Assembly: GCF_023055435.1 (NCBI RefSeq)
Contig: NW_025964001.1
Coordinates: 186,001-250,000 of the forward strand
Length of the DNA stretch: 64,000 nt
Direction: 5' to 3'
Origin: Haliotis rufescens
Taxonomy: Eukaryota
Under the pieces are notes generated by a model. It ran no database searches and was not told where the DNA came from. It was given only the letters and a program-made list of their open reading frames with translations. Below, piece by piece: positions 3,975-60,870 of the stretch. Each line of letters begins with the position of its first letter. The first letter of the stretch is position 1. Made by a program: the position numbers and the translations under genes.

Positions 3975-4281
3975 GGTGAGGTGAGGTGAAATGGGGTTTA
4001 ACGTAGCGTCCAAGATTATGGCTGCTTGTACTAGTCCGGACTGATGCCGATTTATAGTGCTAGTTCACTGAGATACCATGCCGCAGTTTAACGGGAATAC
4101 CCCACTCAGACACAGTATACTGACTCCGAGCCGACCAGACCTTGTTTTAGCCCCTTAATGCCGAGCGCCAGACAGTGTAACAACAAGTACCATCGTCTTT
4201 TGGTATGACGCGGCCGGGGATCGAACCCCGGGCCTTCCGCTCTCCGGGCGGACGCTCTACCACTAGACCACGGAGGCGGTC
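3975..4281 (-). mobile_element. tRNA-derived SINE, family A (MetaSINE/MESC-like core), copy 1, with a small internal deletion
   Basis: Minus strand: A box TGGTCTAGTGG, B box GGTTCGATCC, (CCTCA)n tail; near-identical to 6127-6472 and 7582-7936; degenerate TSD CATnnGTGAGTGA. Meta-like assignment is from recalled consensus. Confidence 0.88.
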
Positions 4282-6126: not shown

Positions 6127-6472
6127 GGTGAGGTGAAATTGGGTTTAACGTCGCGTCCAAGATTATTGCACTTATATAGCGACGTGCATGCACGTGTGTG
6201 TGTGTGGCTGCTTGTACTAGTCCGGACTGATGCCGATTTATAGTGCTAGCTCACTGAGATTCCATGCCGCAGTTAACATGAATACCCCACTCAGACACAG
6301 TTTACTGACTCCGAGCCGACCAGTCCTTGTTTTAGCCCCTTAAGGGCGAGCGCCAGACAGGGTAACAACAAGAACCATCTTTTAACGTCTTTTGGTATGA
6401 CGCGGCCGGGAATCAAACCCCGGACCTTCCGCTCTCCGGGCGGACGCTCTACCACTAGACCACGGAGGCGGT
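6127..6472 (-). mobile_element. SINE family A, copy 2 (full length)
   Basis: A/B boxes; perfect 16-bp TSD GCGTATGTAGTGATGA (6111-6126, 6473-6488). Confidence 0.93.
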
Positions 6473-8219: not shown

Positions 8220-8470
8220 GACCCGTGAAGATCCGGGGTAGAATAGCTCTACAGCAACCCATGCTTGCCGTTAAAGGCGACGGTGCTTGTCATGTCGTAA
8301 GAGGCGACTAACGGGATCGGGTGGTGAGGCTCGCGGACCAATTACGTCGATAGATGCTCATGATATCAATCACTGGATTGTCTGGTCCTTACTCGATTTT
8401 TTACAGACCGCCGTCATATAGCTGGAATATTGCTGAGTGCGGCGTAAAACAACAAACCAATCAACTAACC
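8220..8470 (+). mobile_element. Short retroposon family B (no tRNA head; GTCGTAAGAGGCGAC hairpin), copy 1
   Basis: Starts GACCCGTGAAGATCC; 3' tail ATATAGCTGGAATATTGCTGAGTGCGGCG; TSD TTCTCCCCT (8211-8219, 8471-8479); about seven other copies in the window. Confidence 0.88.
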
Positions 8471-8562: not shown

Positions 8563-8985
8563 GTGAGGTAATATAACTCATATTACTACGAGTTAGAACG
8601 TCGCTTGAGGCGATCTGTGAGGTGTTCTCATACATATTACTACGAGTAAGGGCGGCCGGGTAGCCTAGTGGTGAAAGCGTTGGCTCGTCACGCCGAAGAC
8701 CCGGGTTCGATTCCCGACATGGGTACCACTTCTGGTGTCCCCCGCCGTGATATTGATTGAATATTGCTTAAAGCGGCGTAAAACCATACTCACTCACTCA
8801 CTTACTACGAGTAAGCACATCATTTGAAGCGATAAGGGAGGCGTTACCGCATATTTTACCATGAGTAAGCACATTATCTGAGGCGTTCTAGCTGTGACGT
8901 ATTATCACAGATTTTACTTAGAATAAGCCCATCATTTCAGAGACATTGTGTAACAAATGTTATCACACGTTTTACGGTAAGCCTA
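8563..8985. repeat. Old degenerate ~55-bp tandem repeat interrupted by SINE D copy 1
   Basis: Recurring TTACTACGAGTAAGCAC...TGAGGCG...GTGAGG-like units. Confidence 0.55.
8651..8801 (+). mobile_element. Short tRNA(Asp)-like SINE, family D, copy 1
   Basis: A box TAGCCTAGTGG, GTC anticodon-like loop, B box GGTTCGATTCC, shared tail plus (ACTC)n; 14-bp TSD TTACTACGAGTAAG (8637-8650, 8802-8815). Confidence 0.92.
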
Positions 8986-9899: not shown

Positions 9900-10228
9900 G
9901 TAAGTACCGAAGGTGCCAGGGCAGAGTGCCATACAAAATTATATAAAATAAGGTGGGTTAAAGAGAAAACGGTTCAAGTAGAAAATTAGGCAATGAATAA
10001 ATATAATATAGTGTGACGGAAAACATAGCTACAAGTTATAATCAAAGTCAAAACGGTTGCAGAAGTGACACAGTCGTTCTTCTTCGTCTTCCTGTTTCGA
10101 TCATTAAGTTCTGACAGCCACAGCCGAATCTGATAAATGTCTACGCATATATCGTCACTTGGCCAATGGTATACACATGCATAGGACCACCTGTTAGAAT
10201 AAAGAAAACTACACATATATGGACAATG

Positions 10229-12720
10229 ACACCGTGTATACAGTGCCTGTGGCCCATAGAAGACCGGCCCATGAGCGTCGTGTATACATTGCCTGTTGTC
10301 AATAGAAGGCCGCCAATAATACTGCGCCGTGTATACAGTGCCTGTGGTATATAGAAGGCCGCCAATAATACTGCGCCGTGTATACAGTGCCTGTGGTATA
10401 TAGAAGGCCGCCAATAATACTGCGCCGTGTATACAGTGCCTGTGGTATATAGAAGGCCGCCAATAACACTGAGCCGTGTATACAGTGCCTGTGGTATATA
10501 GAAGGCCGCCAATAACACTGCGCCGTGTATACAGTGCCTGTGGTATATAGAAGGCCGCCAATAATACTGCGCCGTGTATACAGTGTCCTTGGTATATAGA
10601 AGACCGGCCCATGAGCGTCGTGTTTACAGTGCCTGTGGTATATAGAAGGCCGCCAATAATACTGCGCCGTGTATACAGTGCCTGTGGTATATAGAAGGCC
10701 GCCAATAACACTGAGCCGTGTATACAGTGCCTGTGGTATATAGAAGGCCGCCAATAACACTGCGCCGTGTATACAGTGCCTGTGGTATATAGAAGGCCGC
10801 CAATGACACTGCGTCGTGTATACAGTGCCTGTGGCCCATAGAAGACCGGCCCATGAGTGTCTACAGTGTCCTTGGTATATAGAAGACCGGCCCATGAGCG
10901 TCGTGTTTACATTGCCTGTGGTATATAGAAGGCCGCCAATAATACTGCGCCGTGTATACAGTGCCTGTGGTATATAGAAGGCCGCCAATAACACTGCGCC
11001 GTGTATACAGTGCCTGTGGTATATAGAAGGCCGCCAATAACACTGCGCCGTGTATACAGTGCCTGTGGTATATAGAAGGCCGCCAATGACACTGCGTCGT
11101 GTATACAGTGCCTGTGGCCCATAGAAGACCGGCCCATGAGTGTCTACAGTGTCCTTGGTATATAGAAGACCGGCCCATGAGCGTCGTGTTTACATTGCCT
11201 GTGGTATATAGAAGACCGGTTTATGACAGTGCGTCGTGTATACAGTGCATGTGGTCCATAGAAGGCCGCCAATAATACTGCGCCGTGTATACAGTGCCTG
11301 TGGTATATAGAAGGCCGCCCATGACCGGCCCCATGAGCGTCGTGTATACATTGCCTGTTGTCAATAGAAGGCCGCCAATAATACTGCGCCGTGTATACAG
11401 TGCCTGTGGTATATAGAAGGCCGCCAATAATACTGCGCCGTGTATACAGTGCCTGTGGTATATAGAAGGCCGCCAATAATACTGCGCCGTGTATACAGTG
11501 CCTGTGGTATATAGAAGGCCGCCAATAACACTGAGCCGTGTATACAGTGCCTGTGGTATATAGAAGGCCGCCAATAACACTGCGCCGTGTATACAGTGCC
11601 TGTGGTATATAGAAGGCCGCCAATAATACTGCGCCGTGTATACAGTGTCCTTGGTATATAGAAGACCGGCCCATGAGCGTCGTGTTTACAGTGCCTGTGG
11701 TATATAGAAGGCCGCCAATAATACTGCGCCGTGTATACAGTGCCTGTGGTATATAGAAGGCCGCCAATAACACTGAGCCGTGTATACAGTGCCTGTGGTA
11801 TATAGAAGGCCGCCAATAACACTGCGCCGTGTATACAGTGCCTGTGGTATATAGAAGGCCGCCAATGACACTGCGTCGTGTATACAGTGCCTGTGGCCCA
11901 TAGAAGACCGGCCCATGAGTGTCTACAGTGTCCTTGGTATATAGAAGACCGGCCCATGAGCGTCGTGTTTACATTGCCTGTGGTATATAGAAGGCCGCCA
12001 ATAATACTGCGCCGTGTATACAGTGCCTGTGGTATATAGAAGGCCGCCAATAACACTGCGCCGTGTATACAGTGCCTGTGGTATATAGAAGGCCGCCAAT
12101 AACACTGCGCCGTGTATACAGTGCCTGTGGTATATAGAAGGCCGCCAATGACACTGCGTCGTGTATACAGTGCCTGTGGCCCATAGAAGACCGGCCCATG
12201 AGTGTCTACAGTGTCCTTGGTATATAGAAGACCGGCCCATGAGCGTCGTGTTTACATTGCCTGTGGTATATAGAAGACCGGTTTATGACAGTGCGTCGTG
12301 TATACAGTGCATGTGGTCCATAGAAGACCGGCCCATGAGTGTCTACAGTGTCCTTGGTTTATAGAAGACCGGCCCATGAGCGTCGTGTTTACATTGCCTG
12401 TGGTATATAGAAGACCGGTTTATGACAGTGCGTCGTGTATACAGTGCATGTGGTCCATAGAAGACCGGCCCATGAGCGTCGTGTTTACAGTGCCTGTGGT
12501 ATATAGAAGACCGGCTTATGACAGTGCGTCGTGTATACAGTGCCTATGGTATATAGAAGGCCGCCAATAACACTGCGCCGTGTATACAGTGCCTGTGGTC
12601 CATAGAAAACCGGCCCATGAGTGTCGTGTATGTATTATACAGTGTCTGTGGTCTAAAGAAGGCCGCCAAAAGATACTGCTTCGTGCATGCAGTGCCTGTG
12701 GAATATAGAAGGCCGACCAA
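10229..12720. repeat. Minisatellite, 49 bp unit (GTGTATACAGTGCCTGTGGTATATAGAAGGCCGCCAATAATACTGCGCC) with higher-order structure
   Basis: Tandem units of two subtypes; identical or near-identical ORFs recur at offsets of 283 and 1062 bp. Confidence 0.96.
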
Positions 12721-21662: not shown

Positions 21663-21915
21663 CATCATTCCTCTATTGAACAAACAAGCCAGGACAAGTT
21701 ATTTTTTCCATTTTTGAAAGACAAGGAATCTTGACCAGGATAAAAAAACAAAAGGAAGAGAGTTTTATCAAAAATGCAAGTGGAGATTCACCCCAGGATT
21801 GGGCCTATGGACGCAGTCTATTGTGTGGAGATTATGACATCACCATCATCATCATCATCATGACATGTTTATCACAAGCTACATTATGAATGCCGTCTTC
21901 ATCATCAACATCATC

Positions 21916-22337
21916 ATACCTGTGTTTGATGTGACCTAGATACCTGTGTTTGATGTGGTCTAGATACAGGTGTTTGATGTGACATTGATACAGGTGTTTG
22001 ATGTGGCCTAGATACCTGAGCTTGATGAGGCCTAGATACAGACGTTTGATGTGGCCTTCATACAGGCATTTGATGTGGCCTTGATACAGGTGTTTGATGT
22101 GGACTTGATACAGGCATTTGATGTGGCCTTGATACAAGTGTTTGATGTGACCTAGATACACATGCTTGATGTGACCTAGATACACATGCTTGATGTGACC
22201 TAGATACACATGCTTGATGTGACCTTGATACACATGCTTGATGTAGCCTAGATACACATGCTTGATGTGACCTTGATACACATGCTTGATGTGACCTAGA
22301 TACACATGCTTGATGTGACCTAGATACACATGCTTGA
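21916..22337. repeat. Minisatellite, 24 bp unit (GATACACATGCTTGATGTGACCTA), ~17 copies
   Basis: Direct; explains the HIKHVYLG-repeat ORF 21832..22359. Confidence 0.95.
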
Positions 22338-23956
22338 CTGCAACTGCATCTTTACCCACAGCTGCAGCACAATCTGATACAATCTACCCCATCAACTCCC
22401 ACAGCAGGAAGTGCTTCACCTCTCTTCCTGCCTCTCTCTCCACTCACTTCATCTCCTCTGTACACGCTAACACCTACATGCTCATTTATGAACTAGTCCT
22501 AGTGGCTATAAATGTTTGGAGCAATTAGCTTTCAAAGCTTTGAAAAATATGCTATCAACAATTAATTTGATATTTAAATGTTTATGTCAGCAAGCATAGG
22601 TAACTGGGTATCCTTTCTTATTTGAAACCTTTCTCCAATTACCAAATAAAAACAAACAAATGTCCTTTTGATCTCTTACTTGAAAAAATGTTCCCATGAA
22701 ATCTTCTCATTTATTTTTATGCAGGGCATTTTTCTTTTAATGAGTACTGAAAGCATGGCTTATCATAAAGTAATGTGCTTTCAACCTGCAAAATGGCAAA
22801 ATCCATTGTTTAACAGCTATTGCTTCAATAATTTATCCACGTAACATATGACATCTCCTAATGCCTCCTGTATTTACAGCAATCATCAGCACCTGACTAC
22901 AACCACCATCTGAATCCAATCTACCAAACAGCCACATGGCGGCCACATGTTGACCATTGACCTTCACTGACCAGGTCTCCTGAACGTGACTAAACTCACC
23001 TGTCTTTGATCTGCTTAACGATATCTATTGTTACCTGACAGGTACACAGGCACTGACACACCTGATATGTATGTGGCATTCCTCTCTGTGACAGCCCTGA
23101 CAAGGGACATGATACAGGGTGCCGGAGTCTGCATCTAGGCCTCTTGCCATGGCCAACTCTTGTACTACAGTGTGTAACGATGAGGAAATCTAGGCAAACT
23201 GTCTTCAACAAATATCTTTGACAAATGGAGCATGCTTGTACATTCTGTAGTTTTCTTGTATGTAATGTACTACACATATTTACAAGCTTTTCCTACATGA
23301 ATTTCCGCTTAACCTTTGAAGCATGTCTGCTTTAACACATCCAACATGCCACCTTTTCAAATATTTTTGGCACTGGCATCAAAGTCATTAATTCCCCCAA
23401 ACACTAAGGCAGAATGTTAAACCAGGGCTCCTGAATGCTTTTGGCAAGTCTAACTTCTCATTTACATCATATGGGAAAATACACCAACAAAAACATATTA
23501 TTTGTTTCTGGAAACATGATCCTTGTGGAATACAGTACAAACTATTTCGATACTAATCAGTACAGTGTGTAGAATGCCAGGATGTTACCTGTAGTTAGAT
23601 CACATGACCTGATTTGGAAGGGGGGGGAGTGAGAGAGATAGAGACAAGATAGGTGACCTACAGGAGAGGTAGAAGATAGCCATCTAAGATTGGCACAGAC
23701 ATGGAGAGGATCAATGTGGACTTTAAGAGTTGCTTTTACCCATATAAGTTGTTGGACCAGCTTCAACCTAAACAATCAGTCTTGTTATAATTTGCAATGT
23801 GTGTCTGATGCCTACTTCAAAGGCATAACTAAATATGTGTAAACATTTGTCTGGAATATAGTGTCAAGTATCACCTCAAACTGCCCATTCTGTGGTGGGC
23901 TTTTAAGATAGCTCTACACTTAACAACATAGTAACTGTTATTGTTGCTTGGGCAAC

Positions 23957-30377: not shown

Positions 30378-31601
30378 ATCTCAAGGGTTGCAGAAAAAAA
30401 TTGAAATATGTTCATTTCAGAGACTAAAAATAGGTTAGCCTGAGCCTATGTGCTGTGTGTCATGCCTCTCAAGAATATCCTCAAATATGTAAATGTGACT
30501 TTTCCACACAACCTGGCCATGAAAAACTCATAAATCTTGACCACAAATCATCTCACCTGTACCCATTCTCTGAAGCTCACAAATGTCTTTCAAGAAAAAC
30601 TACCACCTTTAGAAATGGCCGTATTCTAATGCATTATTCCTGTGAATGTACATACCAAGATACTCTTTTAACATGCAACAAAGGTGACTCCTTAATAACA
30701 CACAGCTCTAATCAGATGTGTCGATGGACAGTGCTGGCCTGAGTCAGGGCTAGAACGGACTTCAAGCCTATGAACAGCTAATGAAGCCTACTTGATGTGT
30801 TAAAGGCCCGAGTCTGGCCAAATCTCAGGTGCTAGTTAGGTGGTGAAAAATAAGCTGTTTTGCTAAAGAGGAATAGAGGAAAACATCAAACGTTTAAACA
30901 TGCTGAAGACAGAATCTTGTAGGTTTGATTGGAAAAAGAGAACCAGTGCCCATTTGTACTTGTAGACTGTTATTTGGCTGTGATGATGGGCTAGTGCACT
31001 AGAAGTGTTGAAGGATACACCTGGCCTCTCAATAGGAAGAGGCACAAAATATATCCACTGAGAGAGCATAAAGGGTGAAAATATTTTCATTTCCTATGCA
31101 GTTTAAATGTGGCTTCTGGTGTGATATATTACAGAAATTTATTTTGCTGTATCCCATTACGCTGATGTGAACTCAGTGCAAGGGACGCGTCTTGATAGAA
31201 CACTTTTCCTAAACAACCCAAAAAATACATCCTGCATACCTTAACTATAGCTTATCTCCAGTTTGAAGGGTTGAGAGATGTTTCACTAAGTCTTGGCAAA
31301 AAAATGGAAATAAATTCTATGCCATCCTGTTCTAGAAACATGATTACTACTGCAGTTAAAAAATATGAAGAGATAAGAATGTTGGCAAAATTTCTTTAAG
31401 AAAGTGCATTCCTTCATTTTCATTTTTATCGGAATAATGCCATGAAATGATCGGAGATCAAAAACAACACGCTACTCAATTAACAATAAGGATCGCAGGT
31501 TATTCATAATTTCAATTTCTTTCTTTTCTTTTCCAGCTACATAATTTTAAACAATCTGATAATCTTTCATAGAGAATATTTAGAACTATTACCAGTATTT
31601 C

Positions 31602-31866
31602 GTTTGTTTGTTTGTTGTTTAACGTCTCACTCAGCAACATTCCAGCTATATGACGGAAGTCTGTATATAATCGAGTCTGGACCAGACAATCCAGTGATTG
31701 ACATCATGAGCATCAATCCACCCAATTAAGATACGATGACATGCATCAACCAAGTCAGCAAGTCTGACCACCCGATCCCGTTGGTCACCTTTTGCGACAA
31801 GGATAGTCGCCTTTTACGGCAAGCATGGGTTGCTGAAGACCTATTCTACCCGGGATCTCCACGGGT
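31602..31866 (-). mobile_element. Retroposon family B, copy 2, flanked by a 51-bp direct duplication
   Basis: Reverse complement of family B; flanks 31551-31601 and 31893-31943 differ at one base. Confidence 0.9.
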
Positions 31867-33414
31867 AACCTGTCTCAAGGAGAGTGGCAAGTACAATCTG
31901 ATAATCTTTCATAGAGAATATTTAGGACTATTACCAGTATTTCAAAGGTCTGGCAAAATTCTCGTCTTATATGCATTTTCTTGTTCAATAATCTGCAAAA
32001 GGCAAATGACTAAAACTAAGATGGTTTTTTTTGTTGATTTGAGGTCAATGTCCTCACAAAGTTTCCATGAAAACAATATTTCAAACATACCAACAGAAGA
32101 ACTATAAAAATCAACCCCTAACAATCATGTATCTTAAAACGGTTTTAATAAAACCTAATATTTCTACCAACCATCATCATATACATTCACAGCAACATCA
32201 TTAGCCTGGTCATCCATTACCTCTTTTCAAAACATTGTCCTTCTCTTGGTTACATGCATTGGAGACACATAATGGATGACATTGTTAGCACAGAGACAAT
32301 GAATACGTGTATGAACTGTTAGGCTTAGCTAGCGATCCAGCCCAATCCAACGTCATGCCTACAGAATACAACAGCTTACAATAACAATGCAACCTCCGGA
32401 ATAACTGGCTTCACCTTTACACCTTCTACACAGATACTTTCCCTCGGCTAATAAACACCTTAATAACGTAATTCAGTTGTCATAAAGACCTGTAACAAGG
32501 CTGAAGTTACTGCCACCATTCAGCGATATCGTCAAAAGACTTATTATGATACAAATTACCTATTAATTACAGAGAGTGGCCATGTTGGCGACTGGCTGCA
32601 AGACTGACAGGGTAATTACACTGTAGCTATTTGTGTGAACTTAACAATGGTGTCAGACGACTGGGTCTATTACTGTCAGTTGGGACACAAGGTGTTATCA
32701 CCTGGCGCAAGATGCTGTGGATGTGGACTCAACTCGGGGCACACAGCAGGTGCTCCAGCAGCCTCTACTCAGCCACCGAAAACACTCCAGGTTTACAAAA
32801 TAATGAACAAGTTTCAAATTATCACCTCTGCTTCAAATAACAACTCTAGAGAAAAAAATGATCACTACAACGATGCATACTAATGACACCCATAATATGT
32901 AATTCTTCTACTTTATCTGCACCATTGTCAGAGTCGGGTGTATCTGACATCCAGTACAACCTTGTATTCATGTCGAGCCCAAAAGTGCCATTTACTTGGT
33001 TATGAATGTTAATGGGATTTTGATCAAATTACCCAGAAATCTAATCAGTTTTATTCTACAATGTATCCCAATTTCAAACACCATTATATCGGTGACCAAT
33101 GTTCATTAGATCAATGAAATTCAATACCCATACCATTAATTCATGTAATAAATTTGAACACTTTTCCTACCAAGCATGTAATGATTGTATATTGTTACAT
33201 AAAATCCTGTTATGACATCCAGTGCAAGTAACTACCTTTTCCATCTGCCACAGTATAAATTTTTAGGTAATAATAACACACCACTCAATAAAAATAGGAC
33301 GACTCTTACATATGTGATAAGTGTTGTTTCCAGGCATTGTATCCCACGTAAATGCCAGCGTTATTTGTCTGCTCATGTACAGAGGCGCAGCCACATGTGC
33401 AGCTCATCAGCATC

Positions 33415-33799: not shown

Positions 33800-34105
33800 C
33801 AATCAATCATTAACACTGCACCATCATGATTGAGCCTGGACCAGATTAACCAGTCATAGATAACATGAGCAACGATCCATGCTGTTGGGGTACAATGACA
33901 CACAACCAAGTCACCAAGCCTGACCACTCAATCCATTATGTAGCCTCTTACGACGAGGATGGGTTGCTGGGTACCTTTTCTAACCTAGAATATCCCCGTT
34001 GAGACACCAGAAATGGGCTTCACGCATTGTACCCATGTGGGGAAATGAACCCGGGCCATCAGTGTGAGAAGCAAACGTTTTAACCACTAGGCTACCCCAC
34101 TGCCC
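33800..34105 (-). mobile_element. Decayed family B copy (~33800-33999) abutting a family D head (34001-34105)
   Basis: GCCTCTTACGAC...GGGTTGCTG (B); CACCAGAAATGGGCTTCA...AACCACTAGGCTACCCC (D). Confidence 0.75.
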
Positions 34106-40961: not shown

Positions 40962-42718
40962 CTGAGAAATGGGTTATCGGCTAGGTAGAGTAGCTGTAAA
41001 TGTCGCTTCCTATTTCATAATGGGGATGAGAAGCCGGCACATTTTAACAAGATGCCTACATCAACTCGCTGAGAGATGTTATCAATATGTCAGTATATAA
41101 TAAATATTTACTCTAAGCATATTTCCCCCTCATAGACCACAGGCATATAACTTCTTGAAAAAATACACCACTGCTCATTAAAGAACAGAAGACCAACACT
41201 CTGGTCAATATTACAGGCGAAATAACAAACGTTATCATCTCCAAAAATATACAATTATTTCTCCTGCTGTCTGAACCTGACGAGAAGAGACTGACTATGA
41301 TGGTGGATGAAAGGTCAAGCAGCGACACCCATACATCGACAACCATACATCGTTTACCTTCCATATCATGGCGCTTTCTGTTTTTGGCCTCACAAGTCCT
41401 GATACTATCAAACTTAAATGAGAAAGTTGTCATCTAGAACAAATGCCAATAAATACTAAAACAGCTTTCTAGAGCTTGCACTCTTACATTATTTATCGAA
41501 CAGCTTTCTATAGCTCGCACTATACATTATTTATCCAACATTCTTCCAGGTTATAACAGAAATAAATACCAGTAATTAATCACTTATGTATGTTCATTTT
41601 GAGGTGCATTGTAAATTCATCTCACAATGTAGCATCGTGCTTTTGAAAATTCACAAGAAAAAACAGTGTTAAAATATTTACAGTATCATATGAGAAATAC
41701 CAGCTGTATTATCAGAATTACCTACTGTTGATTCATTGACATGTTTGGATTAAGTTTATTGCTTTTGTCAAGAAGGTTTCTCACCAACACCGATGCCATA
41801 TATAAGTTGATATCAAATATCACAGCTGACAGAGGGTGGGTGGTTGTTACGAGGGTGTATTCCCTCATTATGTCGTATTTTTCAATGCTGGCAGTAACAG
41901 CAAATTAGCACCAAATTACCGAAAATGTCCAGGAATACTGCCCTATAAATAAGCCAACTCCGGAAATGTTACACTAGAGCAACATGCTTCCATCTTTCCA
42001 GAGCAAAGCAGCACAGAGCTCATTCTGCCAAAGGTGTATCTGTTCTGATACTGGGCTAACTCAGCAGATAGATTTTATCCAGTTGTTGGCTGAATGCCAA
42101 TATAAACTGACCAATTAGTGTTGATGGATGATTGTCCCACAACAAATATGATAAAAGACAAAGATTACAGCGGTGTTAAACTTATCACCATCATTCCAAT
42201 GGGTCAACCTTGCCAGCGGGGGCGATCACCCTGCCTCCCCTCTCTCCCACAAGTGCCATTAGCCCCAAGCCCCCCCCCTCCCCAATACTCAGAAGCTGTT
42301 AAAGGTATCCATAGAATCAATCCCAAACAACAGTCACCTCCTTGACAATGTGCTGCAACTAATGCTTCAATAAAACTGTGTGCCAATTTGACAAAGGCAT
42401 TTATAGCCCAAAGCCATGGGTCATGTTACTTGTAACATAAGCCAATAATCGATCACAATCAATTATCACCTGAAACTATTTATTAATGTTTATGTGTATG
42501 CAGCATGCCATCTACATGTCATCTAAATATGACATCTTAACCTTCCTTGATGAAGAAGTAACGTGTTTTCTACCATGGACTTGTAGTTGTTTTGTTGGTT
42601 AACACTGTGCTCAGCAATATTCCAGCTTTATCAACACAGCATGTAAATAATCAAGTATGTAACCAGACAACCTGATCCATTTGGTCGCCTCTTACAGCCA
42701 GCATGGGAATTCCCACAC

Positions 42719-42906
42719 TAGTCTGTCATACAGACCGTGACACACATATACCCAATACAGCCCATAATGTTTGGCAAGTCTAGATTACTGCAGTATCTGA
42801 AAATGAAGAGAGTCTCTAAGATCCTTTTCATTATATTTTTATTAAGATAATTACAACTGTTTTTTTCTGTAAGATATGTTCCTTTAAGAGACTAGATGTA
42901 GGTCTA
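42719..42906 (+). mobile_element. AcademH-like MITE family 1, third copy, next to a family B fragment (~42580-42710)
   Basis: TAGTCTG-TCATA-CAGAC ... GAGACTAGATGTAGGTCTA; TSD not recognisable. Confidence 0.72.
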
Positions 42907-47056: not shown

Positions 47057-47464
47057 ACAAGAAACCAAACTTACCGATTCCTTTTTTTTATAATTAGTAC
47101 CAAGGAAAGTAATGAGGCTTCTCCACAAGGAACCAAACTTACCGATTCCTTTTCTTTGTAATTAGTACCAAGGAAAGTCATGATACTTTTCCACAAGAAA
47201 CCAAACTTACCGATTCCTTTTCTTTATAATTAGTACCAAGTAAAGTTGTGAGGCTTCTCCACAAGGGAACAAAATTACCGATTCCTTTTCTATATAATTA
47301 GTACCAAGGAAAGTCATGATACTTTTCCACAAGGAACCAAACTTACTGATGCCTTTTCCTATATAATTAGTACCAAGGAAAGCCATGATACTTTTCCACA
47401 AGGAACCAAACTTACTGATGCCTTTCCCTATATAATTAGTACCAAACAAAGTAATGAGGCTTCT
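47057..47464. repeat. Tandem repeat, 68 bp unit, ~6 copies
   Basis: CACAAGGAACCAAACTTACCGATTCC...ATAATTAGTACCAAGGAAAGT recurring every 68 bp. Confidence 0.94.
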
Positions 47465-50400
47465 CAAGACCAATTTCAGGCTGAAGGTAAGTTTAATGGC
47501 CACAGGACAGTGGAGAGTTCCTCCTCTGGACTTGGCCAACATCCGGGGGATGACTACGGAGCAGGGAAGTGGGTGGGAGCTTTGTCCCACACTGACTCCA
47601 GCCACTGGGACAATCAAGGCAATGAACCTCCCGTGTCCATCAGGGTGAATCCAGGACCTTTTGCTGATCAATTGGACATGAAATTACTTGGGGCATTGGC
47701 TTGCTGAGATTTTTAGACCCTCTGGCCTTGTCTCTTGTGAGGAGGATTTCATCCTATTATGTTGTCCGATCTAATTTAAATTATGACTATCCAACAACAG
47801 TCGTGTCAAGCTCTACCGCTTCTGTTGTCATCCCACCAACTGTCGCGGGTAAAATAATGCACTTAAAACATCTCATTAAAGAGACAAGACTGTACTTATG
47901 AATTTCAAATTATTTAGGTATGTTTGAGGTTTTGAAAGACTGACTGGAAAATATTCAACACATCAATAAACCCTTTCAACAAGTACAACATTCATGAAAT
48001 CATTATCCTCCACAAAATCCCAGTTGTTCCGGGGTTAAAATGTCTGATAGTTGAAGCTGAAAAGTAAAATGTGACATGCCACTGCTGTTTTCATTGAACA
48101 AAATATCTGGTGATACAAGCAAGTCGATCTAAATTATACATGCTTGAGAAGCTTCATTGCCACCCAAACACATAAAGGACGGTCTATTGTAAGACATATA
48201 CAAATGTGATACTTCATGGACAAGCAAAACATATAGTGGGCCAGAAAAGATTGCTGTCCATGAATATCATGATGCTGCAAAAGATATTTCAAATCAGCAT
48301 ATTTGGGACGTCAATAAAATTATAACACTATAACCAGATACTCCCCTACTTGAAATATTTCCTTAACTGAAAACGACATTAATAAATATGGCGGTAATTT
48401 ATCGCAGTATTCAATGATGCTCGAGATTCCCATTTGATACTCGCAATAGCTGACATAGATATTACATGGCCGTCACTCCATCACAGCCCTGACAAGAGAT
48501 GTGAATACAACCGGTACTATGTTGACAGTATTGATTATGGTGCAATTCGCCGACATGCTCAGAGAAAAAAACCTGAAAAACATGTTGAAGGTGGGACCCA
48601 CGCATTTAAGCAAATGTCCAGAGAACAGGTGTTACTGGAAATCAGTTACGAAGAATTGACCGGAGTTATCATATTCTGGTTGAGTCACGGTGCTTCAAGG
48701 GCATAAGGAAACCTACACATGCCACAGGCCTCTGTTGCATATGCATAATTACATACAAAAAGAGGTTTTAAATAATGAATATTGATTCTAAAAATATTGA
48801 ATAAAAAAAGTTAGGGATCGTGACTATTTTGGGGGATATTTTTATGAAATTGTATGCTCATTCTTCAATCAATCCCCAAAAATATTTATTCCCTAACTTT
48901 TCTGTTCAGTATATATGTTGGTAAAGATTATAAAAAAATATGTGTGTAAAAACAATATCTCATTTTGACAAATGTGCTCTTTGAGAATAAACAGACTATA
49001 GGTAAACTGATAAGTACAAACACTTGCCATATTGCAAATAGCTGCAGGCACGACATAAAGAACTACCCTTCAAAATCGGCAGTGCCGAACACAAAAAGAA
49101 GGCACTTGTTGTAGCAAGACATTTATCTCAGAAACATTTGAACATGTTCCAGATACATATTCTCGTGCTTCAACATTTAGCTTGCATAAAATGGTGCACA
49201 ATGGAAGCCTGCACATTTATACAGACAGCCAGGTTGTCAGACATAGACTTAAAAAACGTATGTAACCAACATATTAGCTAATCTTGGTTGATTAAAAATC
49301 TTTGCGAATTTGATCAAGTTTTTATTTGACATTGTTTGGGCCATGACTGCATTTAGCAGCTGAAGGCATAGTATATTTCCATTAGTTTCTATTCCTCTTC
49401 ATCTCATCCCAGGAAGGATACTAATAAATTCTAAATTTTCATTTACTATCTTGTCAGTGAGTTTTCTCTTGGGGCCAGTCATCCTTTAACAATATTTTTT
49501 AAAGTATCACCAGAGTTTCCAAGCTCCATGGGACTGTTCAATCTGCCATATTAAAGAGCTAAATCCTCCCGCTTGGACACACTGACATCCAGCCTGATTC
49601 GCATTCAGCCGTGGACCCTAACTTGGTGCCACTATCCAGACAACTCATAGCAGACTGGGGTTCTCTGAGAAGCCACTTAAATAACTACATGTGAGTCAAA
49701 ATGTCAACAATGAGATTACAAACTCCATACAAATTTCTTCGTTAAAAAAAACTTTTTTTAAACCTTCCCATCTTTGATAAAAATGTTCAAATATTTACAA
49801 GGAAAAAATACAAAAAAAAACATTTTTTCTTTTTACAGGAAGCAGCTAAATGCTGACACCGATGCATGCATGCATGTATGTGTAGGTTTTCCTGATCACA
49901 TCTGGAACCCACCATGAGCTGGGCAGTGGAGGTTACATTAAGAACACCTCACACTAAATACTACTCCTGCAATGGAGGTTACCCTGAGATACAAGAAACA
50001 AGATTATATTCATCTATACATTCCAAGTAGAAACAGTGGCAACATTCTATAAACTATATAAACAGATACATAAGTCAGGATAACAACACAAAGTATCAAT
50101 ACAAAATAGTATGTTATGACCTTGGGTTATCTATAATAAGTACTTCAGATTCATTTGAAGCTGTATATACTTCTTTCCCTGCTTAATGCTTACTTTCATA
50201 TTTGACATTCACGCCAAATTAAACTTATTGTCATGCTTCTGAAATGATAACAACAACGTATTGAAAGAAGCGTGTCTGATTAGGGTATATGCACACGCAC
50301 ACACACAAAGACACGCACACACATTCATTCTGACATTTCCACACAAATCCATACATACCTCCTTAATAAGACCCTAGGAAGGAAGACATACACAACTACT

Positions 50401-50654: not shown

Positions 50655-50787
50655 AGACCGGGTTTTCAAGAAATGAGTGATCTTAGCACTGCGACGATAT
50701 TAGCACTGCGACTATCGTAAGCCTGTGTTAAAGTATTGGAGATACGATCAACATAGCGCTAAGAACACTTTGTGCACGTGGGCCCAG
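50655..50787. mobile_element. Decayed palindromic MITE
   Basis: Inverted repeat AGTGATCTTAGCACT / AGCGCTAAGAACACT (13/15); GGGCCCAG terminus. Confidence 0.55.
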
Positions 50788-54850: not shown

Positions 54851-55278
54851 CTGAAAAAAATTGAAAATATGACTTTGCTGTTTCACGTTGAAATGTGTAG
54901 GCTAGGCTAAGAAAGTTGCATATTTGGGGATTATTGATTTGTGACTAAAATCTTTCATATAAAACATCAATGCCAGAGAAAATCAGTGTCAATTATCTGC
55001 CTAAACAGATTCCACTGGGCCTTAAAGGCAAAACTGTGATGAAAAGATTGTGAATGGATCACTGAAAACCAGTGATGACTCTAGGTCTTCACCAAAAGGG
55101 TGAGCATGTGTTGTCCTTCCAGTAGCACCTACCACTCACACATTTTAAGTGTTTGTTGCCTGTTGCCGCACAGCAGTACTCATATCTCATATCCAATATG
55201 CCAAGAGATATGTTGCAAAAAAATATATAATCTTGTCTAGATTTTTAGAAGATAATATGGTTATTTACTCAAAAAAAT

Positions 55279-55545
55279 TTGTTTGTTGTTTGTTGCTTAA
55301 TGCTGCACTCAGCAATATTCCAACCATATGACGGGGGTCTGTAAATAATCGAGTCTGGACCAGACAATCCAGTGATTGACATCATAAGCATCGATCCATG
55401 CAATTAGGATACGATGACATGCATCAACCAAGTCAGTGAGCCTGGCCACCCGATCATGTTAAGCGCCTCTTACGACAAGCATAGTCGTCATTTACAAAAA
55501 GCATGGGTTGCTGAAGACCTTTTCTAACCCAGATCCTCACGGGTT
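55279..55545 (-). mobile_element. Retroposon family B, full-length copy
   Basis: Reverse complement of family B from tail to the ACCCGTGA head. Confidence 0.88.
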
Positions 55546-57821: not shown

Positions 57822-57998
57822 TGTTTGTGTTCAGCAATATTCCAGCAATATGACGGTGGTCTGTAAATAATCGAATCTGGGCTATTCAATCCTTGAGCAT
57901 CATGAGATTGACATCATGAGCATCGATCTATGAATTGGGATATGATGACATGCATCAACCAAGTCAGTGAGTCTGACCACCCCCATCCTGTTAATCGC
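57822..57998 (-). mobile_element. Retroposon family B, 5'-truncated copy
   Basis: Body and tail match, head absent. Confidence 0.8.
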
Positions 57999-59140: not shown

Positions 59141-59700
59141 GATGGCCTATATACAGAAACAGTCAGTTATTCCATACATATTTGGTAGTGGATGTCAAAA
59201 CTCATTTTGATGAATAGGCTGATCTACTTTTATTACAATGAAGGGCAAATAGCACCTATTTTTAGCAAAGGGCTGTTCTACCCTACATTGAAGGAAGGAG
59301 CTGTTCTACCCTCTAACAAAGGACAGGCATGTTGTACAATATAATGAAACAAGGGCCGGTCTAACCTTTTTTCCAGAAATTGTCTGGGAGCCTTCCACAT
59401 GTTTGATTCAACTAAACTGTGACCGAGGCCCAAGTTGTCCCCTAATCCTAGCGGGTTAACAAAGCTGTTGTTACGGCTAGAAACAGAGTCCATTCAAATG
59501 TAGGGTTTTGTTTGTATGCAGATCCGCAGTGTGTGAAAATGACCTTCGCCAACATGTCAATATTTTCCTGTTCTGACCACTAAAGGGCCTGGTATGTTAT
59601 TTGTCCACTCAGTGGTTAGCTATCTTGGTCTGACGAGAAAATAAACCTAAACGCAGGACCATCATGCAACACTTACTGTTTCTTTTCAAAGACGCTCTAT

Positions 59701-59922
59701 ACCTGTGAAGATCCGGGTAACAATTGGTCTTCAGCAATACATGCTTGTCACAAGACCCGACTTACGTGATCAGGTGGTCAGGCTCATGCATGTCATTGTA
59801 TCCCAATTGCGTTGATCAATGCTCATAATGCCAATCTCTGGATCGTCTAGTCTAGATTCAAATATTTACAGACTGCTGTCATATAGCTGGAACATTGCTT
59901 AGTGTGGCGTTAGACCACAAAC
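59701..59922 (+). mobile_element. Retroposon family B, older single-hairpin copy
   Basis: ACCTGTGAAGATCCGGGT head; many CpG-to-TpG/CpA changes. Confidence 0.82.
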
Positions 59923-60009
59923 AGTCACTCGATACAAATGAGGGCTCATCTAACATATCACAGAAGTATTACATTCACTATACATAGAAGTTATTAGCAT
60001 TGTGTTTTA

Positions 60010-60284
60010 GTTTTGGTTTGGTTTGGTTTGTTGTTTAACGCTGCACTCAGCAATATTCCAGCTATATGACGGCGGTCTGTAAATAATCGAGTCTGGACCA
60101 GACAATCAAGTGATTAATATCATGAGCATCGATCCATGCAATTGGGATACGATGACATGCATCAACCAAGTCAGCAAGTCTGACCACCCGATCCCGTAAG
60201 TCGCCTTTTACGACAAGCATAGTCACCTTTTACGGCAAGCATGGGTTGCTGAAGACTTATTCTACCCCGGAATCTTCAGGGGTC
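60010..60284 (-). mobile_element. Retroposon family B, full-length young copy
   Basis: Perfect 13-bp TSD GCATTGTGTTTTA (59997-60009, 60285-60297). Confidence 0.92.
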
Positions 60285-60870
60285 GCATTGTGTTTTAAAG
60301 CAATATGGGCCCTGCTACTTACATCTTGCTAGCTGAAAGTTCATCTGAAGCCGACACTGGATCATGATATCATGATAACCGTTGGTGACCTTTACAAGTA
60401 TACTTAAAAGCACAGTACACATAAATGTATGAAACATTAATTGAGATCTGTCTGCCAATATATACACATATACAGACATACTTGTACACACAAAGAAATC
60501 ACTTTTCTTATCAGTATTACAGATTTGATGATATACATAAAATGTCATAGGTTGATTGAGATCAATGCGTGTTTATTGCTTGAAATTATACACATGGAAA
60601 CATATGCAGCTGATGTCGATGGCTTCATTATTTGAGAGAATGTAGCGAAATAATTTGCTTTTGTGATTGTCGACATTTACATTTTGTGAGGGTAGGTTTC
60701 CCAAAGAGTATTTGTTTCTTGAGTGTGTTTGGTACAGGGAAGTAGGTGGTATTTTTCATCATCAATGGCTGAAAGTGTCCCTGATGTAGTTGGGTGGATG
60801 GCTTCCTATCTCTTCCAAGTGTGTTTAGGAATCACTATCACATAAATAGTTATATTTATTTCCATATGTA

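Follow-up and report, generated by a model that had tools for sequence, protein, structure and literature searches.

The first 70-90 bases, approximately, of family B, a short retroposon of Haliotis rufescens, constitute a conserved RNA fold made up of an H-type pseudoknot, the linker AGAATA and a hairpin enclosed by a further stem (S3). The evidence laid out below points, with a probability that we put at about 45%, to this head fold acting as an xrRNA-like roadblock to 5'-3' exoribonucleases that would trim read-through transcripts to the first base of the element. More tentatively, this head, which has been described as the LP head, may represent a new class of xrRNA that moves between animal retrotransposons and RNA viruses and fixes the 5' ends of LINEs and SINEs by nuclease trimming.

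Family B is an abundant SINE with a fixed start

Family B was examined in a window of 64 kb (the whole stretch of DNA analyzed), which contains eight copies, five full-length and three partial (Table 1), matching the initial annotation's count of about eight copies with five sharing a start. Allowing up to two mismatches, the start pattern matched the window six times, against 0.79 matches expected, and none of 100 shuffles scored as high; the sixth match, at 50787, is not a B copy and was rejected. As the annotation had also reported, a TSD exactly abuts base 1 in two of the five full-length copies (9 bp in the 8220 copy and 13 bp in the 60284 copy), and no A box or B box was found in the family. 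An Rfam scan of the window at gathering thresholds returned no match other than three tRNA-like heads of other SINEs.

Table 1. Family B copies in the 64-kb window and features of the copy starting at 60284.
Feature	Positions	Strand	Basis
Full-length family B copy (60284 copy), LP-SINE type, double-hairpin form	60010..60284	-	Sequence and window copy search
TSD of 60284 copy, upstream repeat, 13 bp, abutting base 1	60285..60297	-	
TSD of 60284 copy, downstream repeat	59997..60009	-	
Pseudoknot stem S1 of 60284 copy (60282-60279 with 60268-60265), enclosing the S2 5' strand (60278-60271)	60265..60282	-	Covariation
A-rich linker AGAATA (pseudoknot loop 3), 60284 copy	60258..60263	-	AGAAT invariant in 22/22 alignment rows; AGAAT also a search anchor
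Pseudoknot stem S2, 3' strand, 60284 copy, 8/8 pairs	60250..60257	-	Covariation
Two tandem 22-nt units, each with a GTCG-N7-CGAC hairpin, the second (60214-60200) being the intact one	60199..60242	-	
Stem S3 of 60284 copy, CCC (60245-60243) with GGG (60195-60193), closing the hairpin region	60193..60245	-	
Body of 60284 copy, origin unassigned; matches fetched LINEs only via B copies inserted near them	60063..60192	-	
Tail of 60284 copy, common to 3' ends of the genome's LINEs and the tRNA-headed SINE at 8654	60034..60062	-	
Terminal (CAAA/CCAAA)n repeat, 60284 copy	60010..60033	-	
Full-length B copy, 9-bp TSD abutting base 1, S2 6/8 pairs	8220..8470	+	
Full-length B copy	31598..31867	-	
Full-length B copy	55278..55545	-	
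Diverged B copy of full length with one hairpin, in tail-to-tail orientation to the 60284 copy	59700..59922	+	
B copy with 5' truncation	57831..57998	-	
Partial, diverged B-like copy	33826..34004	-	
Partial, diverged B-like copy	42587..42742	-	

Genome-wide, family B is a TSD-flanked SINE of approximately 250 nt, with no tRNA head and a fixed start, that measures 251 nt up to its terminal repeat with a 22-nt duplication included. A first look at the genome (G000, 1.33 Gb) yielded 3,771 candidates, and a sample of forty 10-kb stretches (400 kb) taken at round coordinates of large contigs contained 19 full-length and 46 partial copies, plus 6 matches to the tail alone, a density that extrapolates, in rough terms, to 60,000 full-length copies. 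For start mapping, 60 copies were retrieved with a query restricted to the body, since the head must not bias their selection. The head was reached in 41 of these, all of which share a single start point within unrelated flanks, while the other 19 are truncated or deleted. Among the 21 full-length copies in which a TSD was called, nine TSDs end at base 1, nine enter the element by microhomology and three end 1-4 bases short, with 18 agreeing with a start at base 1 or 2. The first base is G in 33 of the 41 copies, T in four, C in three and A in one, and hence a purine in 34. The hairpin is present twice in 29 copies, owing to a 22-nt tandem duplication, once in 11 and not at all in one.

The initial annotation had contemplated a longer tRNA-headed parent from which these copies might merely be truncated. 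No such parent was found, nor any upstream sequence common to the 41 full-length copies. A tRNA-like match lies upstream of the body in three of the 60 copies (L463, L479 and L458); the one in L463 belongs to a neighboring SINE with its own tail, and the one in L479 is 20 nt long. Small-RNA reads from runs labelled as another species map to B in antisense only, with no sense pile-up at base 1, and are uninformative on the 5' end. A single 31-nt antisense small RNA with U as its first base (L460:1579-1609, minus strand) dominates the B reads in two runs (63 and 9 molecules) and is piRNA-like.

Several other features of the window were recorded. The 59700 and 60284 copies are separated by 87 bp, and a long double-stranded RNA could arise from them. 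At 31550-31907 (minus strand), a 15-bp exact duplication is located 25 nt upstream of a B start and approximately 36 nt past the tail, which is a possible case of flank transduction or nested insertion. A short tRNA-headed SINE at 8654-8790 (plus strand) shares its LINE-type tail with B and also has (CTCA)n repeats, and two LINE loci (L440 and L447) end in a tail matching this SINE, which may be either an adjacent SINE copy or its donor. Two copies of another tRNA-headed SINE of approximately 330 nt (4206-4277 and 6398-6469, minus strand) terminate in (CACCT)n, a feature reported for Haliotis MESC SINEs, and tandem-repeat arrays at 9986-12251, 21832-22383 and 47207-47707 give long stop-free frames that are probably satellites, not genes.

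The head forms a pseudoknot supported by covariation

The layout of the fold was obtained from a descriptor fit to the head families. It comprises a stem S1 (3-6 bp), an 8-9-nt loop whose first base is U, a variable spacer with AGAATA at its end and a stem S2 formed by 7-8 bp with the loop, followed by a linker, the first strand of S3, GCN, the hairpin GTCG-N7-CGAC, TAA and the second strand of S3. The 5' CCCG pairs with CGGG in the loop, and a downstream CCC pairs with the GGG that follows the hairpin, S3 being short in family B compared to the 4-6 bp seen in most other families. The spacing between the start and AGAATA varies widely from family to family.

Covariation was assessed on two alignments. 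The first used a sequence-only register of 22 of 23 family representatives, in which the pattern dropped the B representative and a few mis-registered rows were kept. Paired cells in S2 amounted to 130/176, compared to 98.5±5.5 in permuted alignments, with none of 20,000 permutations as high; those in S1, a stem that is partly built into the register pattern, amounted to 82/88 compared to 69.8 (1/20,000), and S3 obtained a score of 243 compared to 190.6±10.1 (0/3,000). The second was an unfitted MAFFT alignment of 22 rows, B included, in which 89% of cells pair, against 24-51% in slid controls, and two-sided changes occur in 47 cells, against 15.5 in shuffled alignments (0/500); the number of pairs with a double change was within the shuffle range (59/500). 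These results support stems S1, S2 and S3 by covariation over 22 families, some of which are related, so that alignment cells are not independent events. The stem of the hairpin is nearly invariant and is therefore silent on pairing, and this invariance is in part a product of the search. Structural support was taken from covariation and not from folding energy because the nested folding energy of three B heads is ordinary (z-scores of -0.17 to -0.80). A 19-nt hairpin pattern matched at least 120 metagenome stretches and 9 viral stretches, and the metagenome matches, among those listed, read as animal repeats of several families. Tandem heads lie within one repeat at L047:1369-1521.

Two of the four pairings proposed in the initial annotation hold. 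The stem GAAGATC/GGTCTTC and the GTCG hairpin within GTCGT-AAGAG-GCGAC were correctly drawn. The other two fail, with an outer stem ACCCGT/ACGGG scoring 179 against 177.3 in permuted alignments (1,288/3,000 as high) and a pseudoknot between a GGGT loop and downstream ACCC scoring 212 against 211.8 (1,538/3,000), the partners having been swapped. The broader proposition of a pseudoknotted RNA at the head of an element with a fixed 5' end is borne out by covariation and by the one start of all head-bearing, body-selected copies. The T-A pair noted in the 60284 copy, at the end of a stem where others have C-G, is present but is a single-copy change, as 142 heads show C-G in 104 cases, T-G in 31 and T-A in one.

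The T-G cases reflect a common subfamily change, C14T, that retains the pair as U-G. This speaks against the fold working only in the parent LINE and being a passenger in B, with a start inherited from one or a few master copies endowed with a local promoter, an explanation that we hold to be highly improbable. The 22-nt duplication does disturb S3, and conservation of the B head does not exceed that of the body (0.90-0.94 versus 0.96), as might be seen in a passenger, but these conservation figures are expected either way and are uninformative because dead copies decay evenly. Furthermore, unrelated short families start at the same offset.

Elements start at a fixed distance from the pseudoknot

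To map starts, families were aligned on the U that opens the pseudoknot loop, and the boundary was placed where conservation drops to background. It falls at position -6 from this U in family B (n=71), in two metagenome families (n=16 each) and in a head-led LINE (n=3), even though the base at that position is, respectively, G (82%), A (81%), G (100%) and T (3/3). In a fifth family (n=6), the boundary is blurred at -4/-5. These data suggest that the end is set by distance from the structure and not by sequence, a behavior more in keeping with a steric halt than with a Pol II start or a catalytic site.

They also bear on the published LP hypothesis (Matetovici 2016), according to which the head would be an internal Pol II promoter starting at base 1, perhaps with a second role as RNA like that of Pr77 in L1Tc, and which we regard as unlikely and place second among the alternatives. 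Elements that insert at random often have internal promoters, and Pr77 is described as both promoter and ribozyme (PMC3383444); the purine start of most B copies and the high copy number seen in the 400-kb sample would likewise be accommodated. However, one LINE family begins with T, the distance from the start to AGAATA is far from constant between families and compensatory changes call for an explanation at the RNA level. In addition, transcripts begun at -6 would lack the HDV-like leader, which most partner LINEs keep (see below), and the fold is present in RNA viruses, which have no DNA stage.

Partner LINEs keep an HDV-like leader in front of the head

The head and the tail of B, whose copies carry TSDs, find counterparts in LINEs of this genome with coding capacity for APE, RT and RNase H domains, in line with the initial annotation's view of B as a LINE-derived 5'+3' element. 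These LINEs were reached through a match in a prokaryote assembly (L404), which is a LINE in which the head precedes a gag-like ORF, and its ORF1, used as a query against G000, gave 147 scored matches. In all 25 LINE loci fetched, the head is located upstream of ORF1, in the 5' UTR, at 520-670 nt from the ORF1 match in 24 loci and at 1439 nt in L417. The hairpin and AGAATA are near-invariant also in these LINEs, which were retrieved by protein search. All three ORF2 domains were detected in both copies checked, and a zf-CCHC match in one of the two ORF1s checked; these features suggest that the partner LINEs are Nimb-like. The LINE 3' ends match the tail of B, as does the tRNA-headed SINE at 8654. 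An autonomous LINE with the same 5' end, which the annotation had recommended looking for, exists in terms of the fold, but the exact B head joined to a coding body, or an exact donor of the B head and body, was not found among the 30 of 66 pattern matches examined.

A fixed leader of approximately 60 nt precedes the head in 21 of the 25 LINEs. It is predicted to parse as a minimal HDV-like ribozyme that nearly lacks P4, consisting of P1 with a G1-U wobble, P2, P3, L3, P1.1 and CNAA in J4/2, with the element start as G1, and it matches Rfam family RF02682 at 28.5 bits (E 0.0018), under the gathering score of 44. At least the 3' half of the leader is present in L414, and in L405, L406 and L412 the element begins at the head, without leader. 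A TSD abuts the leader G1 in the full-length LINE copies with both ends seen, and the last stem of the leader ends where head-led elements begin. The leader is kept across LINE subfamilies that differ in ORF1 length and tail, and a search for it in front of a B head gave 0 matches. As the first module of many intact Nimb-like LINEs (L407-L429 and L431-L449, G000 LINE 5' ends), it is a candidate ribozyme of its own. At L446:410-583, a LINE has inserted into a B copy, leaving a B head, an HDV-like leader and a LINE head in a row.

The arrangement of the two modules has consequences for the mechanism proposed in the initial annotation, in which the head would be a novel type of self-cleaving ribozyme with its cut site ahead of base 1, possibly slow or regulated in its action. 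A compact pseudoknot, invariant unpaired bases and a sharp 5' end would all suit such a ribozyme, and ribozymes are known in retroelements and linear RNA viruses (PMC6765202, PMC13725137). Nonetheless, the head is unlikely to be the cutter because an HDV-like leader directly in front of it already marks the 5' end in 21/25 LINEs, and if cutting at the edge of the head were efficient, or if transcription mainly began there, this leader would be shed in each cycle, yet it is kept. The base at the supposed cut is not conserved between families, and a search of a B copy (L015) found no Rfam ribozyme at E<=10, which agrees with the annotation's failure to fit the head to known ribozyme classes. Moreover, in viruses the fold lies between the coding region and the 3' end, a place in which efficient cleavage would presumably do harm, and the genomes scanned yielded no copy that is clearly prokaryotic. 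We thus consider self-cleavage of the head improbable.

The fold recurs in the 3' UTR of RNA-virus-like contigs

The fold was identified in the 3' UTR of seven viral contigs, corresponding to six distinct sequences (L151, L152/L157, L154, L156, L158 and L561). It is separated from the last stop by 6, 10, 10, 23, 75 and 100 nt, and by approximately 123 and 198 nt for the two L561 copies, with the gap being 6-23 nt in four contigs and 75-123 nt in three, and all viral 3' UTR copies end 14-119 nt from the contig end. Upstream proteins present Pfam matches to RdRP_4, RdRP_3, nodavirus capsid, peptidase A21 and S-domain coat, the last of which does not by itself prove an RNA genome, and L151 gave no Pfam match and is RdRp-like by motifs. 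Tandem copies of the fold occur in L151 and L561, and L561, which was found after the covariance model was built, carries a new S3 pair. The presence of the fold in RNA-virus-like 3' UTRs indicates that in viruses it functions without a DNA stage. A lone fold (L153:1458-1535), whose S2 5' strand is nearly identical to that of B, was also observed between two same-strand genes in a 212-kb DNA virus contig.

Among 150 anchor sites, good fits were confined to the known viral copies and three 'prokaryote' loci, and the search with the covariance model added L561, L395 and L398. Covariance scores near 26 bits and below, including L155 and L159, reflect the search anchor and were rejected, as were phage record matches, which are chance only, and loose viral patterns, which are mostly chance matches. 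A scan of 185,579 prokaryote genomes returned 10 matches, none of them clearly prokaryotic, whereas the majority of small ribozyme classes are represented in bacteria or phages. Three were rejected as prokaryotic copies: L404, a LINE with a gag-like ORF, L402, which runs into simple repeats, and L396, which is located within the first 200 nt of a contig, in eukaryote-like DNA; all three read as animal DNA. Together with L395 and L398, these loci probably represent animal retroelement-like DNA in bacterial assemblies (contamination or chimeric contig ends).

The viral location is relevant to a further alternative, in which the head binds a translation factor or the ribosome, acting as a 3'-CITE-like element in uncapped viruses and as a 5' element in ribozyme-cut LINE RNAs. 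The SINE would thereby reach new ORF2 protein, and its fixed end would reflect the footprint left by that factor or cleavage by a host nuclease. We deem this alternative unlikely, even though it ranks first among those considered. In its favor, the head directly follows the HDV-like leader and precedes the ORF1 match by 520-670 nt in nearly all LINEs, the fold lies near the 3' end of viral contigs, the near-invariance of the hairpin and AGAATA is recognition-site-like and retroelement ribozyme leaders have been reported to support cap-independent translation (PMC6765202). However, a translation element alone leaves the -6 start in four families unexplained, and no known CITE was matched in Rfam. 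Translation and an exonuclease roadblock are compatible and not mutually exclusive.

A proposed exonuclease roadblock as the best explanation

The exonuclease roadblock is favored because of the covariation in S2 and S3, the viral 3' UTR location and the -6 start in four families, and also because of the HDV-like leader kept in 21/25 LINEs, the lack of a clearly prokaryotic copy in the scan and the existence of an analogous fold in coremin xrRNAs. Under this model, B would be transcribed from upstream host promoters and the precursor would be opened by decapping or cleavage, after which Xrn1 or Xrn2 would stall six bases before the loop U, with a bound protein as an optional component, and the trimmed RNA would be copied in trans by the partner LINEs via the common tail. 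In LINE RNA, the HDV-like leader would give a 5'-OH end, which is a poor Xrn substrate and might thus account for LINEs keeping both modules. In viruses, the same fold may leave a short 3'-UTR RNA, or shield it.

Some observations weigh against this model. The nearness of viral copies to contig ends suits a 3'-end translation or replication element equally well, three viral contigs show gaps of 75-123 nt, and the G at base 1 of 33/41 B copies could also stem from a cap-derived G or from transcription initiation by Pol II. Neither the coremin sequence nor the class 1 or class 3 layout is present in the head, and the boundary of the fifth family is blurred. In published work on coremin xrRNAs, ordinary pseudoknots do not halt Xrn1, even when a second hairpin is present (PMC10321173).

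If correct, the roadblock would constitute a third route to 5' ends beside internal promoters and ribozymes, and it would amount to a cellular xrRNA in tens of thousands of genomic copies. According to a 2021 review (PMC8374639), characterized xrRNAs came exclusively from viruses, and eukaryotic genomes are expected to hold some. The module of approximately 75 nt is a candidate eukaryotic xrRNA for which compensatory variants exist in nature and a halt site can be predicted at -6 relative to the loop U. A roadblock would explain the exact 5' end of retroelements that have no promoter or ribozyme, as well as why otherwise dissimilar LINEs have just their first ~70 bases in common, a question that Matetovici 2016 (PMC4758252) did not resolve. 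Even as a translation element, the head would define a fold common to retrotransposons and RNA viruses that was not found in the open-access literature.

Comparison with known systems

The SINE type to which B belongs is already published. LP-SINEs with a head of approximately 70 bp, presumed to be a promoter, have been described in Haliotis, Ostrea, Saccostrea and Littorina, and their head resembles the 5' ends of Nimb-17_LMi, I-3_DR and RTE-9_CPB (Matetovici 2016, PMC4758252). The scallop SINE head labelled 'Nimb-17 homology' in that study (Suppl. Fig. S2) shows the same stems, linker and hairpin as B, which for this reason is assigned to the LP type. B is probably the relative of Hdi_LP/Hmi_LP, with which it shares a LINE-derived ~70-bp head, TSDs, terminal repeats and the absence of a tRNA head; the Hdi_LP consensus measures 255 bp, compared to 251 nt up to the terminal repeat in B, and the polyA-like hexamers AATATA and ACTAAA reported for LP-SINEs are not exact in B. 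In contrast to the present analysis, that paper proposes a promoter and contains no structure, virus link or partner LINE. Searches of the open-access literature yielded no account of the head structure, its virus link or the HDV-like leader, and neither the head motif sequence nor a connection between the LP head and a structure.

The HDV-like ribozymes of R2, L1Tc/NARTc (Pr77) and RTE are, like the head, short 5' modules common to unlike LINEs and their non-autonomous partners. The head differs from them in strand order and has no HDV core, the nested double pseudoknot P1-P2-P3-L3-P1.1-P4-J4/2 with a G1 wobble being absent from the B head (no Rfam match at E<=10), and it gave no Rfam match to hammerhead, twister, twister-sister, pistol or hatchet ribozymes, whose typical cores do not appear in the head alignment. 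The s2m element is also a small RNA element common to unrelated RNA viruses and animal genomes (bioRxiv 10.1101/2020.06.29.177030), but the head has no sequence or Rfam match to it, contains a pseudoknot and is tied to retroelement 5' ends.

The closest structural parallels are with xrRNAs. The class 1 layout does not fit the head. Class 3 xrRNAs of plant viruses (ST9a; PMC12397905) resemble it in having a long loop-to-3' pseudoknot of 8-9 bp in the 3' UTR, but the P1/P2 stack and the L2B T-loop hairpin described for that class are not in the head alignment. The Watson-Crick coremin xrRNA (xrRNA-WCC), an H-type pseudoknot with a required second hairpin, lies 8 nt past the last ORF of an invertebrate-derived virus (PMC10321173). 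Like the head, coremin xrRNA-WCCs consist of an H-type pseudoknot whose S1 is short, together with an A-rich linker and a hairpin further downstream. They are found just past the last ORF of RNA viruses (PMC10321173, PMC6546385), a position that the head approaches in four of the seven viral contigs (gaps of 6-23 nt, against 75-123 nt in the other three). S2, however, spans 7-8 bp in the head compared to approximately 3 in xrRNA-WCC, and the 20-nt coremin sequence with its YGAD loop and conserved spacer (PMC6546385) is not in the head, whose loop is 8-9 nt long and fully paired. The second hairpin is the conserved part of the head, and its near-invariance is atypical for coremin RNAs as described (PMC6546385), although our searches selected for this hairpin. 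Because the coremin sequence and the class 3 layout are both lacking, the head is not filed as a member of a known xrRNA class. Unlike coremin xrRNAs, it occurs at the 5' ends of retroelements, with Xrn1 resistance as a putative property, and it places its pseudoknot, as xrRNAs do, at the 5' edge of the RNA that would be protected.
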